Origin: Spirochaetia bacterium
GTDB lineage: Bacteria; Spirochaetota; Spirochaetia; SZUA-6; Bin103
Direction of reading: 5' to 3'
DNA length: 64,000 bases
Assembly: GCA_965203055.1 (NCBI GenBank)
Contig: OZ241863.1
Coordinates: forward strand, 576,001-640,000
Positions 36,001 to 42,000 of this stretch are shown here, piece by piece (within the stretch, counting starts at the first letter, position 1; each line of letters opens with the position of its first letter). The position numbers are program-made.

Positions 36001-39000
36001 TGAGGATCAGCGGCCGGCCGGTGGCGCCGCGGGCAATGCGCAGGGCGGTCATCACCGCCTCGGTACCGGAACTCACCAGGCGCACCCGCTCGGCGCCGGG
36101 ATAACCGTTCAGAATCAGCTCCGCCAGCTCCGCCTCCGCGGCGTGGCAGGCGCCGAAGGAGAGCCCGCGCGCGGCCGCCTCCCGCACCGCGCGCACTACC
36201 TCCGGGTGGGCGTGGCCGAGGATCAGCGGCCCCCAGGACTGGCAGAAGTCGACGTAATCGTGGCCGTCCGCGTCCCGCATCCGGCTGCCGCTGCCGCGCG
36301 CGAAGAACACCGGCGTGCCTCCCACCGCCCCGAACGCCCGCACCGGGCTGTTGACGCCGCCCGGCAACCGCTCCACGGCCCGCGCGTAGAGGCGCGCCGA
36401 TTCCGGCCGCTGCCTTGTCCCGCTCATGTTCCCGTCAACCTCCAAAGGCGCCAGCGCGCATCCCGACTGGTGCGCTCGACCCCCGGCGGCGCCCCGCCGC
36501 CGGCCCACGCCGCCACCGCCCGCAGACAATCCGCCGCCGAACCGCGCAGCCGATAGCTCCGCCAGGCGCCGGCGCCGGCGGCAGGGTCCGCGCCGCCCGC
36601 GGCGGCGAAGCCGTAATCCAGTATCCAGCCCTGATCCTCCGCCGGCCTGGCGTACGCGCCGCAGGCGGCGGCGCAGCCGCCGCCGAGCGCCTGCAGCAGG
36701 GAGCGTTCCAGGGTAACCGCGGCGCGGGTGGCGGCGTGGTCGACCGCCGCCAGCCGCGCCGCGGCCGCGCTCGCCGGGCGCGCCTGCACTGCCACCGCCC
36801 CCTGCCCCGGGGCCGGCGCCCAGCGCTCCGGCGGAAGCGCCACCAGGCGCAGGCCGGCGACCGCCGCGCGCAGGCGCTGCAGCCCGGCCGCGGCCAGCAG
36901 CAGCGCCGCCACGCCGCCTTCGCGGCAGCGCCGCAGGCGGGTCGGAACGTTGCCGCGCAGCGCGGTCGGGCGCGCTTGCGGCGCGTAGTGGCGCAGCAGC
37001 GCGGCGCGGCGCGGCGAGCTGGTGCCCACCGCGGCGCCGGGCCGCAGCCCGAGCGGCGCCGCCGGCGCGAACCAGCGCGGCGCGATTACCAGCACGTCGT
37101 GCGCCGCGGCGCGCGGCAGGATGGCGGCCAGACACAGCTCCGGGGGCTGCTCCAGGGGCAGGTCCTTGAGCGAGTGGACCGCCGCCTGCGCCGCGCCGTC
37201 CCGCACCGCGGCCGCGACTTCCGCGGTGAACAGCCCCGGACTGGTACGGGCGAGGGCGGCCAGAGACGCGGCGCCGCCGCCCGCGCCCGCCGCGCCCGGC
37301 GCCGCGCTGCGGTCGCCGCGCGTGGTCACCGGCATGATGCGCCACGCAGCGCCCCCTTCCGCGGCGCTCAGCGCCGCCTGCACCAGGCGCGCCTGCGCCA
37401 GCGCCAGGGCGCTGCCGCGGGTGGCGAGCACCAGCCCGGGCGGCGCGCCGCCCGCCGCTGCCGTGCCGGCCGGCGCCGCGCGGACCGCCGCCCCGCGGCC
37501 CCCGGCGCCGGCCGCCGCCGCCGGCCGGCCCGCGCCGTTGCCGCCGTCCGCGCCGTTGGCCGAGCGCGCGGCGCCCGGCGCGCGCTCAGGCCGGGAAGTG
37601 GCGGCCAAGTCAGGCGTCCGCCCGGTCCACTGCCGGCGCCTGCTTCAGGACCCGCCGGTAGAGGGCCTCGAAGCGGGGCACCACCAGTTCGCAGCCAAAG
37701 CTCTTCGCCTGCTCGCGGCCGGCCTCGCCGCACCGCCGGTGGAGCTGTTCATCGGTGAGCAGCTCGACGGCGCGCGCCGCCATGGCGTCCACGTCGCCCG
37801 GCGGCAGCAGGTACCCGGCGCGGCCGTCCGGCACCACCTCCGGCAGGCCGCCGGTGCGGCTGGCGACGACCGGCACCCGACTGGCCATCGCTTCCAGCGC
37901 CACCAGGCCGAAGCTCTCCGCAGCGCTCGGCAGCAACAGCAGGTCGGTGGTCTGCAGGAACGGGGCCACGTCGTCCACCACCCCGACCGTCGTGACGTCG
38001 TCCGCTACCTCCAGGCGGCGCGCCAGCGCCAGCGCGCGGCTCAGATCGGGGCCGTCGCCCACCAGCACCAGCCGCGCATCCACCCGCCGGCGGATGCGGG
38101 CGAACACCTCGATGACGTCCGCGGCGCGCTTGACCGGCCGGAAGTTGGAGATGTGCAGCACCTGCTTCGGGGCCGCGGCCTGGCTCCGGTCCGGCCCCCC
38201 GTCGGGCCGCCCGCGCGCGGAGCCGTAGTGCCCGAGTTCCACGCAGTTCGGGATTACCTCGATGGGACGGGTGACCTGGAAGGTGTCCGCGGTTTCGCGC
38301 CGCAGATACTCCGACACGGTGGTCACCGCGTCCGACTGCTCGATGGCAAAGCGGGTCACCGGGTGGAAGTAGGGCGCCGCCCCCACCAGCGAGGTGTCGG
38401 TGCCGTGCAGGGTGGTCACCACCTTCAGGTTCAGCTCCGGCGCCATCTGCCGCGCCAGAATCGCCGCCGGCGAAAACGGAATGGCGTAGTGCACGTGCAG
38501 GATCCGCAGGGCGTTGGCGGCGGCTACCTCCACCATCTTGGCGGCCAGCGCGAGCGTGTAGGGAAATTGCTTGAGCAACGGATATTCCCCGGCCTGCACT
38601 TCGTGAAAGGTGACGCGCGGCGGCAGCTCCACCAGGCGCAACGGCGCGGCGTAGCTGATGAAGGAGATGGTGTGCCCGCGCAGCGCGAGCTGCTTGCCCA
38701 GTTCGGTCGCGAATACCCCGCTGCCGCCGTGCGTGGGGTAGCAGGTAATGCCTAGTCGCACGCGCCGTCCACGTCATACACCAGCAGCTCGTGGTCCGTC
38801 TCCAGCGGATCGCAGGCGGCCAGCAGCGCGCCCGGCAACTGCGGTCCGTAGCGGCTCACGAAGTGCGCCGCCGGCAGCACCCGCTCCTGCGGCCGGGCGC
38901 GCGGCCACACCTCGTCGCGCAGCCGCTGCAGCGCGCGCCGCGCCGCGCCGCGGCGGCTCATCAGCGCGCGCGCGGTGCGTTCCTCCAGGCGCTCCGCGGC

Positions 39001-42000
39001 GCGTTCCGCGTGGCCCAGGCTGCGCCGCCAGGTATGCGCCAGATTGGGGTCGGCGGCGGTGACGTGCGCTTCCAGCGGCTGCCACAACTCGCTCAGGCGG
39101 CGCCGCAGCGCGGCGAAGCGGGCGCGCTCGGTGGCCGGCACCGCGGCGTTGAAGGCCGCCCGCACCGAGAACTCGGGACCCACGATCTGCTCCGGCAGCA
39201 GGTCGAAGTGGGCGAGCACGGAGACGGCGCCGGCCGGGGCGATGGTGTAGCTGCGGCGCGCGGCGATGAGGGGTTGCGGCACCTCGAACAACCGATAGAC
39301 GCCCTGCAGCATGGCGTGGTAGGCCACTTCCCCCGGTCCCAGGACGGTGGCCACCGAGGGCAGCGCCAGGTCCGCCAGCACCGGCCGCAGCGCCGCGTCG
39401 GTGGACAGCTTCGCCTCCGGGGCGGGCGCCGCGCCCGGCTCCAGGCGGACGCGGCGCCCGCCCGCGGCGTGAAACAGGGTGCCCGCGCGCGCCGGATCGA
39501 GCGGCGCCGGGTAGCCGTCGGCCGCCAGCGCCGCGGCGGCCTGCTCCAGGGCGCGCCGCACCTGCCCCGCGGCCGCGGCCGCACGGGCGTAGAAGTCCGG
39601 GAACAACGGCCGCAACAGGCGCGGCTCCAGGATGACGAGGCCGTGCTCCCCGAACAGCCGCGCCAGCGCCGCGGCCAGCGAGTGGGCGAAGCCGCCGCCG
39701 CGCGGCGCGAACAACTCGCGGGCGTAGGCCGCGAACTTGCCGTCGCCCTGGCGTTCGAAGAACCGCTCCGCCGCCTGCCGCACTTCCGGCGTGACCGGCA
39801 GCTCCTCGATCGAGCGGCCTTCACCCTCCCAATCGAACCGCGCGCGCCCCACGCTGCCGTCGGCCGCGAGGTAGTGAGCGTGGTTGATCTCACCCAGGTC
39901 GTGATCCTCGGAGGCCAGCCAGAACACCGGTACGCACCGCCGTCCCAGCTCCTCCTGGCAGCGGTTCGCCAGGCGAATCGCGCTGGCGATCTTGTACAAG
40001 GTATAGCCAGGCCCGCCCATGAAGCCGGCCTGCTGGCCGGTATGCACGCAGCAGGTGCCGGCGTCGGCCAGCGCGGCGGCGCCGGCGACCGCCGCCTCCG
40101 GCGCCCCGAGCGTCCGGTTGTAGCGCGCCAGCGCCGCGGCGAGATCGGGCTGCGCCGCGCCGGCGGCATCGCGCGCGCGCAACGCGCCCGCGGCGTCGCC
40201 GCCGGCGTGGGTGAAGTAGCGGTCCACACGCCCCGCCAGGTAGTCGAGGTAGAAGCGGCTGCCCCCGTACACCTGGGTCATGGGGACGCGATGAGACTCG
40301 ATCAGTCGCAAGCCGGCCTCCTCAGCCCCGGACGCCGCGGCCCCGGACCCCGCGGCGGCCGCGCGCTGCCGCGGTCAGGCGGGCAGGCGCGAATGGGTCC
40401 CGTCGCAGAATGGGTCTTTGTCAGTCTGCTTGCACTGACACAGCGCGTAGTTGCGCCGCTCCTCAACGGTGAACTGCAACGGCTCGAACTGGCTGCCCTG
40501 GTGGGAACCGTCGCAGAACGGCTGATTCCGGCTCTGGCCGCACCGGCACCACCAGTAGCTGCCCGGCTCCAGATTCAATACCGCCGGCATCCGTTCGGCA
40601 ATCTGCCCCTTGGCCTGGTTGTCGGTCATCTCGTGCATCTCGTGAGCGCTCCTGCGCAAACTGTACCGAAGAACGAAGCCGCCCTGCAACGCGGGTGTCC
40701 CGCCCGCCCCCGCCCGCCCGGCTCCGCTGGTCCGCTCGCCGCTGACGCCGCTTCCCGCAAACCGGTTGACTCTGCGGCTCGAATAGTGGCAGTTATTATG
40801 ACGAATCCTCACCAACCCCGACTGCCGGCGGTGCGCTGCGTTCCCGGTCGCGCGCACCGGCTGCGGCGGCTGGAGTCTGCATGCTCATATTTGCACCACA
40901 GGAAACCGACCCCAACGAGCCGCGCGCCGCCGTCACCCCGGAGACCGCCGCCCGCCTGGTCAAGCTGGGCGCCGCGGTGGCGGTCGAGAGCGGCATCGGC
41001 GCCGGCGCCAACTACTCCGACGCCGCCTACGAGAAGGCCGGCGCCGCGCTGCGCGGCGACCGCGCCGCGGCGTTGCGCGAAGCTGACGTGGTACTGCGCG
41101 TGCGCCGGCCTCCGGCCGCGGAGGTCGCGCTGCTCAAGCAGGGGGCGGTCCACGTCAGCTTCCTCGACCCCTTCAACGAGACCGCGCTGGTCGACGCGCT
41201 GGCGCAGCAGGGGGTGAGCGCCGTCAGCATGGAGCTGGTGCCGCGTTCCACCCGCGCCCAGAAGCTGGACGCCCTCAGCTCGCAGCACAGCATCGCCGGC
41301 TATGCCATGGTGTTGATGGCCGCGGACCGGCTCAAGACCATCCTGCCGATGATGGTGACGCCGTCGGGCACGCTGCAGCCGGCGCGGGTGTTCGTGATCG
41401 GCGCCGGGGTCGCGGGCCTGCAGGCGATCGCCACCGCCAAGCGGCTCGGCGCGCGGGTCGAAGCGTTCGACACCCGGCCCGACGTGGCCGAGCAGGTGGA
41501 GTCGCTCGGCGCCCGGTTCGTCAAGGTCGATCTCGGGGAGACCGGCCAGACCGAGCAGGGCTACGCCAAGGCGCTCACCCCGGAGCAGCTCGACAAGCAG
41601 CGCGCGGCGATGGCCGACCGCTGCGCCCAATCCGACATCGTCATCACCACCGCGCAGCTCTTCGGACGCAAGGCGCCGGTGGTCGTCACCGGCGACATGG
41701 TGGGGCGCATGAAGCCGGGCAGCATCATCGTCGACTACGCGGTGGAGTCGGGCGGCAACGTGGAGGGTTCGCAAGCCGGCGAGGACGTCGACGCCGGCGG
41801 AGTGCTGATCATCGGCTACCGCAACGTTCCGGGGCGGCTGGCCACCTCCGCCAGCCAGATGTACGCCAACAATCTGTACAACTTCGTCGACGAGTTCTGG
41901 GATCAGGACAGCAAGTCGTTCACCCTGAACCGCGCCGACGAGATCATCTCCGGCAGCCTGGTGACCCACGGCGGCGAGCTGGTCAACGAGATGGTCAAGA

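Follow-up and report, generated by a model that had tools for sequence, protein, structure and literature searches.

Does an uncultured spirochaete make bacillithiol (BSH) and run its redox chemistry on this thiol? The question is raised by a pair of genes, bshA and bshC, in the window (the whole 64,000-nucleotide stretch of DNA analysed here). In the part of their text that bears on the matter, Hiras et al. 2018 (PMC6282198) describe Spirochaetes as having no documented or predicted low-molecular-weight thiol, and the relevant portion of a 2025 RefSeq survey places Spirochaetota among the phyla without a complete BSH pathway. The genome-wide survey's note had nevertheless proposed a complete bacillithiol system in this genome. 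That observation is borne out: the synthesis set (BshA, BshB1 and BshC) and the client and recycling set (BrxA/B, BrxC, Bdr and YfiT) are all present as intact ORFs, and all seven families score above their cut-offs. Given the 2025 listing, the present case adds modestly to a known pathway, taking it into a phylum where surveys saw none. The note's interpretation as a whole is partly supported.

The genome is a single contig (C1) of 4.56 Mb and 95.9% complete, which rules out misbinning as the source of the gene set. Its G+C content is about 68%. The note's description of the host as a spirochaete is overstated in one respect: phylogenomic placement in the phylum Spirochaetota is its sole basis, and searches of the host family for FlaA and flagellin gave no match. 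The genes at the locus are as follows.

36424..37608, minus strand: hemC, porphobilinogen deaminase (PF01379, 171.8 bits), abutting the end of bshA; context
37610..38761, minus strand: bshA, N-acetylglucosaminyl-L-malate synthase of the GT4 family; 383 aa, GTG start
38752..40311, minus strand: bshC, whose product adds cysteine in bacillithiol synthesis; 519 aa, TTG start
40375..40857, minus strand: gene for an iron-sulfur protein of the CDGSH type, next to bshC on its upstream side (PF09360 zf-CDGSH, 77.9 bits in two stretches)
40881..42041, plus strand: pntAA, NAD(P) transhydrogenase alpha subunit (PF05222 and PF01262), divergent from CDGSH-bshC-bshA; context
42038-42376: 112-aa ORF between pntAA and pntB, from the ORF list
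42373..43806, plus strand: pntB, NAD(P) transhydrogenase beta subunit (PF02233, 617.4 bits); context

The coordinates of bshA and bshC agree exactly with those given earlier, as does their description as an overlapping pair: the GTG start of bshA lies within the final 10 nt of bshC, and the overlap is 10 bp. A Shine-Dalgarno sequence, GAGGAGG, precedes the TTG start of bshC by 5 nt. BshA scores 462.8 bits against the NCBIfam equivalog TIGR03999 (cut-off 273.7), aligns over its full length with B. anthracis BshA (2jjm, 3mbo; 336 bits) and B. subtilis BshA (5d00; 301.8 bits), and retains the ESFGL..LEAM stretch (E-x7-E). BshC carries the Pfam domains PF10079 and PF24850 and scores 289.4 bits against the equivalog TIGR03998 (cut-off 265.8), a margin of just 24 bits with the match split into two HMM stretches. 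Its alignment with B. subtilis BshC (PDB 4wbd) is full-length at 107 bits, and the columns GQQ, FW.AS.D.D..E and GP.E..Y are invariant in an alignment of 10 sequences. BshC is not known to have shown cysteine-ligase activity in a reconstituted in vitro system from any species; the final step is thus inferred even in model organisms.

The other bacillithiol genes lie elsewhere on the contig. BshB1 (C1:387895-388584; TIGR04001, 223.4 bits, cut-off 182.5) has the motifs AHPDD and HPDH. BrxA/B (TIGR04191, 190.9 bits, cut-off 100) carries the CGC motif, and YfiT scores 240.3 bits against NF009807 (cut-off 160). BrxC (PF11009, 71.9 bits, cut-off 24.2) has its cysteine within an ACPIS stretch, where the canonical motif is TCPIS. 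YpdA/Bdr (TIGR04018, 374.6 bits, cut-off 339.9) aligns over its full length with solved Bdr structures (7a76, 7a7b), and has an alanine at the position of Cys14 of the Firmicutes enzymes. A preprint reports, in the section on this residue, that the S. aureus YpdA C14A mutant is inactive, and also that this cysteine, buried about 8 Å from FAD, is replaced in the YpdAs of other phyla.

Hence all the families of the Bacillus/Staphylococcus system (BshA, BshB1, BshC; BrxA/B/C; Bdr/YpdA; YfiT/BstA) are represented above curated cut-offs, with BshA, BshC and Bdr matching solved enzymes from end to end and the CGC of BrxA/B in place. Unlike in that system, the host is a high-G+C member of the Spirochaetota, bshC and bshA overlap, and bshB1 is about 226 kb away; the two residue replacements in Bdr and BrxC and the low BshC score to B. 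subtilis likewise set it apart from the Firmicutes. Gene content is read here directly, while enzyme activities, the thiol and expression are deduced from homology. On this basis the organism probably makes BSH and runs a BSH-based redox cycle, with bshC-bshA derived from a laterally exchanged cassette. BshA would couple UDP-GlcNAc with L-malate, the distantly encoded BshB1 would strip the acetyl group, and BshC would attach cysteine. BrxA/B (through CGC) and BrxC would then take BSH off S-bacillithiolated proteins; Bdr, an NADPH-dependent flavoenzyme, would reduce BSSB and Brx-SSB; and YfiT, a DinB-family S-transferase, would link BSH to electrophiles. Translation of bshC and bshA is presumably coupled within one minus-strand unit, CDGSH-bshC-bshA-hemC.

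The note had cautioned that the product might be N-methylated, and this caveat proved apt, in that the relevant gene, nmbA, is present in the sister genus and absent from this genome. NmbA of Chlorobaculum tepidum is CT1040 (PDB 9RI2; PMC6282198, PMC12719100). In the sister genus, an nmbA gene occurs in 13/13 genomes directly before bshC (4/4 loci and L081), giving the order nmbA-bshC-bshA, and its product scores 130.7 bits against 9ri2, the next best structure reaching 61 bits; the sister genus is thus predicted to produce N-methyl-BSH. An nmbA-like gene also lies directly upstream of bshC in Chloroflexota relatives, at two Planctomycetota loci and in spirochaetes with a short form of BshC, which makes N-methylation the common state of the cassette. 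That the redox system here runs on N-methyl-BSH or another derivative is nevertheless unlikely, even though some unrelated enzyme may carry out a modification. In this genome, no hit at E<=1e-5 came from tblastn with any of five NmbA-like queries, the sister-genus methyltransferase has no match at E<=1e-15, and the CDGSH gene holds the slot that nmbA takes in the sister genus; the genus has 10 other genomes, in which a single match of 63 bits is the only one to nmbA. Since no NmbA homologue was found, unmethylated bacillithiol is the best prediction for the product.

Could the bsh genes instead be a recent import of marginal use, with cysteine, CoA or gamma-glutamylcysteine as the main buffer? 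The nearest relatives of BshC and BshA do belong to another phylum, and 4 of the 10 same-genus genomes gave no YpdA match (it is present in 19/23 other genomes of the family). The note's single GCS2 match is real (187.6 bits), but the protein, considered as an enzyme of the glutathione route, was rejected: it is a YbdK-type carboxylate-amine ligase (NF010039, 410.8 bits, cut-off 371), which could make some gamma-glutamylcysteine. Against marginal use stands the presence of BshA and BshC in all of the family's other genomes (23/23); these span two genera with a BshC identity of only about 41%, which indicates long retention under selection. Five more BSH-specific client and recycling genes are scattered around the chromosome. 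The thiol-route search covered gshA, gshB, MshC, EgtD, CoADR and NmbA, ovothiol and EanB-type ergothioneine lying outside its scope. It gave no match in the genome for gshB (PF02955) or gshA (PF04262) and no EgtD homologue; the best MshC score, 196.9 bits against a cut-off of 485.1, is at the level of a cysteinyl-tRNA synthetase, in keeping with the earlier statement that glutathione synthetase and mycothiol genes are lacking. CoADR reaches 72 bits at best (cut-off 578.8). We therefore regard marginal use as quite improbable. Even less credence, very little indeed, goes to the idea that the pathway of these BshA- and BshC-like enzymes ends in another, related glycoside thiol, with malate, for instance, replaced by a different acceptor. 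BshC is divergent (23-30% identity to other full-length spirochaete BshC in the alignment, besides its narrow pass of the cut-off), and such scores do not tell which substrates the enzymes use; however, BshA exceeds the cut-off of its equivalog model by 189 bits and can be aligned over its whole length with solved enzymes that use malate, and BrxA/B, Bdr and YfiT, partners specific to BSH, are above their cut-offs as well.

Other spirochaetes have the same need for a small thiol buffer. Borrelia burgdorferi is described as using CoA with a CoA-disulfide reductase (PMC3147059, in the part concerned), and the pertinent text on Leptospira interrogans lists annotated gshA and gshAB (PMC13066512); neither solution was found here. 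The 2018 statement on spirochaete thiols thus exists as the note reported it, but overlooks both cases. BshC is present in 23/23 other family genomes and 51/92 genomes of the order, close to the note's counts. Its claim that the markers hardly occur outside the order goes too far: among 400 phylum genomes sampled outside the order, 7 have BshC above cut-off and 9 more have the shorter form. All five full-length cases examined also have BshA above cut-off and a BshB1-like gene. Outside the order, four or more further spirochaete families have bsh sets that are complete or nearly so.

A spirochaete heritage of the genes seems not to hold. The BshC tree places the family in a clade with Anaerolineae (Chloroflexota; support 100/100), separate from the order's other bshC-positive family (AU p 1.8e-7), with identities of 40-44% and 24-25%, respectively. 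In contrast, the BshA tree joins the two families (SH-aLRT 90), so that the picture of lateral transfer is a mosaic. The nearest BshC and BshA relatives sit in nmbA-bshC-bshB-bshA operons of Anaerolineae MAGs, and Chloroflexota loci have a methyltransferase-bshC-bshB1-bshA operon; here, nmbA is missing and bshB1 lies outside the cluster. The core genes bshC-bshA look laterally exchanged, in one direction or the other, and would be part of an nmbA-bshC-(bshB)-bshA cassette held in common with Anaerolineae rather than ancestral in the phylum.

The neighbourhood itself is conserved. The bshC and bshA genes are adjacent in 7/7 family loci examined (L066, L068-L072, L081). The CDGSH gene, whose real start is probably internal to the ORF, is kept upstream of bshC in the same-genus genome L072 (72% identity); we treat it as genomic context and not as a shown pathway component. 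The divergent placement of pntAA, which may possibly serve the NADPH supply of Bdr, recurs in L072, L081 and the Brocadiaceae MAG locus L085. The hemC gene also follows bshA in L072 and L081, and the order pntAA, bshC, bshA, hemC is the same in this genus and its sister genus.

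On the minus strand of the window, bshC lies 5′ of bshA, and the two open reading frames overlap by 10 nt. bshC begins with TTG, with a GAGGAGG motif 5 nt ahead of this start, and the GTG start of bshA falls within the final codons of bshC. Together with a CDGSH iron-sulfur gene, hemC and a class-III aminotransferase gene, the pair forms a unit in the order CDGSH gene, bshC, bshA, hemC, aminotransferase. The features are listed here in window coordinates:

36424-37608, minus strand: hemC, downstream of bshA
37610-38761, minus strand: bshA, coding for putative BshA (383 aa; TIGR03999)
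38752-40311, minus strand: bshC, coding for putative BshC (519 aa; TIGR03998, PF10079 and PF24850)
40375-40857, minus strand: CDGSH iron-sulfur gene with two CDGSH motifs, directly upstream of bshC
40881-43806, plus strand: pntAA and pntB, NAD(P) transhydrogenase, divergent from the bshC unit

BshA scores 462.8 bits on NCBIfam TIGR03999 (equivalog cut-off 273.7) and aligns end-to-end with solved BshA structures, at 336 bits over residues 2-373 for B. anthracis BshA (2jjm, 3mbo) and at 301.8 bits for B. subtilis BshA (5d00). In the alignment with B. anthracis BshA, the E-x7-E stretch (the GT4 motif) and the GGSGV, LHGTD and ISNFR.VKR stretches are identical or conservative. We infer that BshA is a putative GT4 N-acetylglucosaminyl-L-malate synthase, with UDP-GlcNAc and L-malate as its predicted substrates. 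BshC passes more narrowly, with 289.4 bits on TIGR03998 in two stretches (equivalog cut-off 265.8). It carries the Rossmann-like N-terminal domain (PF10079, 181.8 bits) and the C-terminal coiled coil (PF24850, 50.1 bits), and both domains align with B. subtilis BshC (4wbd, 107 bits). Residues G92, Q93, Q94, F130, W131, S134, D136, D138, E141, G325, E328 and Y331 are invariant in a ten-sequence alignment. The protein would putatively add cysteine to GlcN-malate, although this activity is not known to have been reconstituted in vitro with any BshC. With both proteins over their equivalog cut-offs and the reading frames overlapping, the bshA-bshC pair reported in the genome-wide survey's note is borne out.

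The remaining proteins of bacillithiol (BSH) synthesis and use are encoded elsewhere in the genome, which is one contig of 4,557,819 bases and 95.9% complete. BshB1 reaches 223.4 bits on TIGR04001 (equivalog cut-off 182.5), and its translation contains AHPDD and HPDH, the LmbE-type metal motifs. BrxA/B scores 190.9 bits on TIGR04191 (cut-off 100) and reads SVCGCAAG, which includes CGC, the redox motif of this bacilliredoxin. BrxC, at 71.9 bits on PF11009 (gathering cut-off 24.2), has its single active-site Cys in ACPIS, the canonical motif being TCPIS. YfiT/BstA covers the full NF009807 profile (1-172) at 240.3 bits (equivalog cut-off 160), and YpdA/Bdr reaches 374.6 bits on TIGR04018 (cut-off 339.9). 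All seven proteins thus exceed their cut-offs, and the genome holds the full BSH synthesis and client set claimed by the survey. On its plus strand, at G000:C1:1006179-1006814, there is another LmbE/BshB-like deacetylase paralogue, which scores 88 bits on TIGR04001, under the cut-off; an amidase of the BshB2 or Bca type is one possible identity for it.

Bdr resembles its solved counterparts over its full length (273.7 bits for B. cereus 7a76, 225.7 bits for 7a7b) but differs from the Firmicutes enzymes at the Cys14 site: their GGGPCG is GAGPAG here, with Ala in place of Cys14 and a Cys three residues on. According to a structure preprint and a review, the C14A mutant of S. aureus Bdr/YpdA is inactive, and Cys14 is buried at about 8 Å from FAD (10.1101/2020.12.02.408641; PMC8945050). 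The preprint also states that YpdAs from other phyla have this Cys replaced, and it considers a catalytic role for the residue unlikely (10.1101/2020.12.02.408641). Given these last two statements, Cys14 is no defining feature of Bdr outside Firmicutes.

Genes for other low-molecular-weight thiols were sought in the same genome. For glutathione, a profile search with PF02955 (gshB) and PF04262 (gshA) gave no match. The GCS2 protein could be thought to hide a glutathione route; it falls under the GshA equivalog cut-offs and reaches 410.8 bits on NF010039 against a cut-off of 371. This marks it as a YbdK-type carboxylate-amine ligase, and since gshB was not found in the genome either, such a route is ruled out. 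For mycothiol, MshC reaches 196.9 bits where its cut-off is 485.1, and the MshA model (cut-off 462.5) gives 82 bits, with BshA itself as the matching protein. Hence the survey's statement that no glutathione synthetase or mycothiol genes were found agrees with the profile scores. The EgtD model for ergothioneine has no match in the genome and scores 387.8 bits in one genome of the same genus. CoA-disulfide reductase (CoADR) reaches at best 72 bits in the genome against a cut-off of 578.8, a cut-off that no control genome passed either.

Across the 92 genomes of the order, BshC is over its cut-off in 49, the present genome included, and BshA likewise in 49. By family, BshC (E<=0.001) is found in 23/23 genomes of the host family and in 25/25 of a second family, all over the cut-off. 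In a third family it is found in 2/5 genomes, both with a shorter form under the cut-off, and in the remaining five families in 0/38. BshA (E<=1e-60) occurs in 23/23, 23/25 and 2/5 genomes of the same three families, and in 1/21 of a further family as a contig-edge fragment. Within the order, YpdA was found only in the host family (19/23 genomes), with 0/68 elsewhere, the second family (0/25) included. In a sample of 400 Spirochaetota genomes, all outside the order, full-length BshC exceeds its cut-off in seven genomes of four families. In each of the five such cases that were checked, BshA also exceeds its cut-off and a BshB1-like gene is present; of these BshB1-like genes, two pass the cut-off and three score 158-164 bits. 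Because BshC, BshA and BshB1-like genes thus occur outside the order, the survey's statement that BSH markers are almost confined to it is only partly right. Six further TIGR03998 matches (genomes G112, G126, G139, G183, G196 and G396) have E of about 1e-4, cover the coiled-coil part only and were treated as chance.

It should also be noted that nine of the 400 genomes hold a BshC form of 408-488 aa that lies under the TIGR03998 cut-off. These shorter proteins make up a distinct clade from at least six spirochaete families (loci L020-L028, L036-L041, L157 and L158), often with an NmbA-like gene directly ahead, and in genomes G476 and G477 the short form lies near a BshA over its own cut-off. 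The short form may be a trimmed functional BshC.

The neighbourhood of bshC bears on the product of the pathway. In Chloroflexota relatives, the operon consists of genes for an MBL-fold hydrolase and a SAM methyltransferase followed by bshC, bshB1 and bshA. The same methyltransferase gene stands directly ahead of bshC in the sister genus of the host family (4/4 loci plus L081), in two Planctomycetota loci, and in seven short-form-BshC genomes of other spirochaete families (f29, f45 and f48). The sister-genus protein matches the NmbA-type structure PDB 9ri2 over its full length at 130.7 bits (E 5.6e-37), the next best structure scoring 61 bits. A crystal structure of NmbA, the N-methyl-bacillithiol synthase, is reported in a 2025 Redox Biology paper (PMC12719100). 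With five NmbA-like queries, tblastn gave no match in the present genome at E<=1e-5, and an order-wide search gave none there at E<=1e-15. Strong matches (370-556 bits) in 13/13 sister-genus genomes serve as the positive control; the 10 other genomes of the host genus have no strong match, and the only match of any kind among them is one of 63 bits (G407). Methyltransferase matches of 62-102 bits in bsh-negative families were taken as generic class I methyltransferases and not as NmbA. From this presence of nmbA in the sister genus and its not being found in the present genome, we predict plain BSH for the latter and N-methyl-BSH for the former.

In the host genus, the slot held by nmbA in the sister genus is filled by the CDGSH gene (also at L072:3640-3960). 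The order pntAA, CDGSH gene or nmbA, bshC, bshA, hemC is kept in one locus of the same genus and one of the sister genus, and pntA and pntB lie divergently beside bshC in both genera (L072, L081). A Brocadiaceae (Planctomycetota) MAG (L085) shares the divergent pntAA upstream of bshC. The transhydrogenase could serve as an NADPH supply for Bdr.

Several explanations may be considered for the presence of these genes in a spirochaete. Misbinning or contamination, which could bring in genes resembling those of foreign phyla, is ruled out, since one contig of 4.56 Mb makes up the whole genome. Descent from a common ancestor of the order has to be judged for each gene on its own. When one genome per species was scanned, the closest BshC proteins outside Spirochaetota came from Chloroflexota (Anaerolineales) MAGs, at 40-44% identity to the host BshC; the latter is thus as near to them as to that of the sister genus (41%) and much nearer than to that of the second family (24-25%). 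Two BshC trees were built: one of 84 rows under LG+G4, with duplicates and partial sequences dropped and the second family thinned to 7 rows, Pyrinomonadaceae to 4 and Bacillaceae to 3, and one of 50 rows under LG+C20+F+G4. Both place the host family, Anaerolineae and a MAG labelled Thermotogae in one clade (support 100/100). BshC of the second family falls beside an unclassified MAG (96/85), with a weaker tie to Acidobacteriota (73/50), and the remaining spirochaete BshC proteins make up another three groups. An AU test, with taxonomic groups and picked after the tree had been viewed, rejects a single BshC clade for the host and second families (delta lnL 168, p 1.8e-7). Thus, for BshC, a BSH system ancestral to the order is not supported.

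For BshA the picture is different. Its tree has 30 rows, after removal of a single short sequence, of three duplicates and of three partial sequences at locus edges, and it is without Acidobacteriota, in whose loci bshA is not beside bshC. Here the host and second families are sister groups (SH-aLRT 90) adjoining Chloroflexota (95), and as regards BshA, ancestry within the order is possible. In the second family (L042-L063; genomes G459, G467 and G450), bshA and bshC lie 30-50 kb apart. Since the BshC and BshA trees disagree, the history of the pair is a mosaic one. BshA may be common to the two families by descent and BshC may have been replaced in one lineage. At least in part, the bsh genes look to have been gained by lateral transfer.

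The host family itself departs from the rest of the phylum in its flagellar genes. FlaA was not found in the present genome and occurs in 1/23 genomes of the family, as against 80/80 of the other sampled genomes of the phylum and 67/68 of the order genomes outside the family; Flagellin_N occurs in 1/24 genomes of the family. Judged by gene content, the family is an atypical, flagella-less lineage inside Spirochaetota, without the FlaA sheath protein and flagellin that mark the classical spirochaete cell plan with its periplasmic flagella. The sole family genome with FlaA and flagellin is G404 (locus L066, identical to L076). It is assigned to the same genus, is fragmented into 510 contigs and 81% complete, and its BshC shares only 46% identity with that of the present genome; the bin could be chimeric, or the lineage could have been placed wrongly. 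As for habitat, seven public runs contain half or more of the words sampled from window positions 37610-40311; four of these runs, all from one study, are labelled sponge metagenome. Other runs with a sponge or marine metagenome label contain under half of the locus words. This suggests a sponge-associated habitat of the host.

One tentative reading, which taken as a whole we think rather unlikely to hold in every part, would join these results. An nmbA-bshC-(bshB)-bshA cassette would have moved among Anaerolineae, Planctomycetota and several Spirochaetota lineages, and would have entered a spirochaete family that has high G+C and no flagella and whose DNA occurs in sponge metagenomes. The sister genera would then have split cleanly, one with nmbA and predicted N-methyl-BSH and the other with the CDGSH gene and predicted plain BSH, and within the order BshC would have been replaced independently of BshA. 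If this were true, the genus split would be a natural experiment on the purpose of BSH N-methylation, and it would hint at a role of the CDGSH protein as an Fe-S or redox partner linked to BSH.

The survey had set its finding against a 2018 listing of Spirochaetes as having no documented or predicted low-molecular-weight thiol, and this statement is indeed present in Hiras 2018 (PMC6282198), whose supplementary text files do not mention Spirochaetes, Chloroflexi or Planctomycetes. A 2025 RefSeq survey reports no complete BSH pathway in Spirochaetota, Chloroflexota, Lentisphaerota or Thermotogota (PMC12719100). Two sources count against the premise of a thiol-free phylum: CoA and CoA-disulfide reductase are named for Borrelia (PMC3147059), and gshA and gshAB are tabulated for L. 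interrogans (PMC13066512). Our literature search returned no paper tying bacillithiol to spirochaetes beyond the 2018 and 2025 statements. The genomes of uncultured lineages fill this survey gap, with the core genes in 49/92 order genomes and in several other spirochaete families. What is described here is a known system, soundly annotated, in a phylum for which the published surveys list no such pathway. The practical gain is modest: the genes are named by existing annotation pipelines, and the chemistry is known. Beyond the record for the phylum, the mosaic and apparently laterally exchanged origin, the sister genera with and without nmbA, and the loss of flagella in the host family offer testable material on the spread of thiol systems and on the reason for BSH methylation.

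Finally, the base composition of the window is uneven. G+C is about 0.68 over the window and about 0.65-0.79 around the bshC-bshA locus, against about 0.58 at window positions 24001-28000. Just past pntB, a gene for an AAA_15/AAA_21 ATPase (AbiEii/OLD-like by Pfam) occupies window positions 43835-45157 on the plus strand, where G+C drops to 0.56; this stretch may be a small island.
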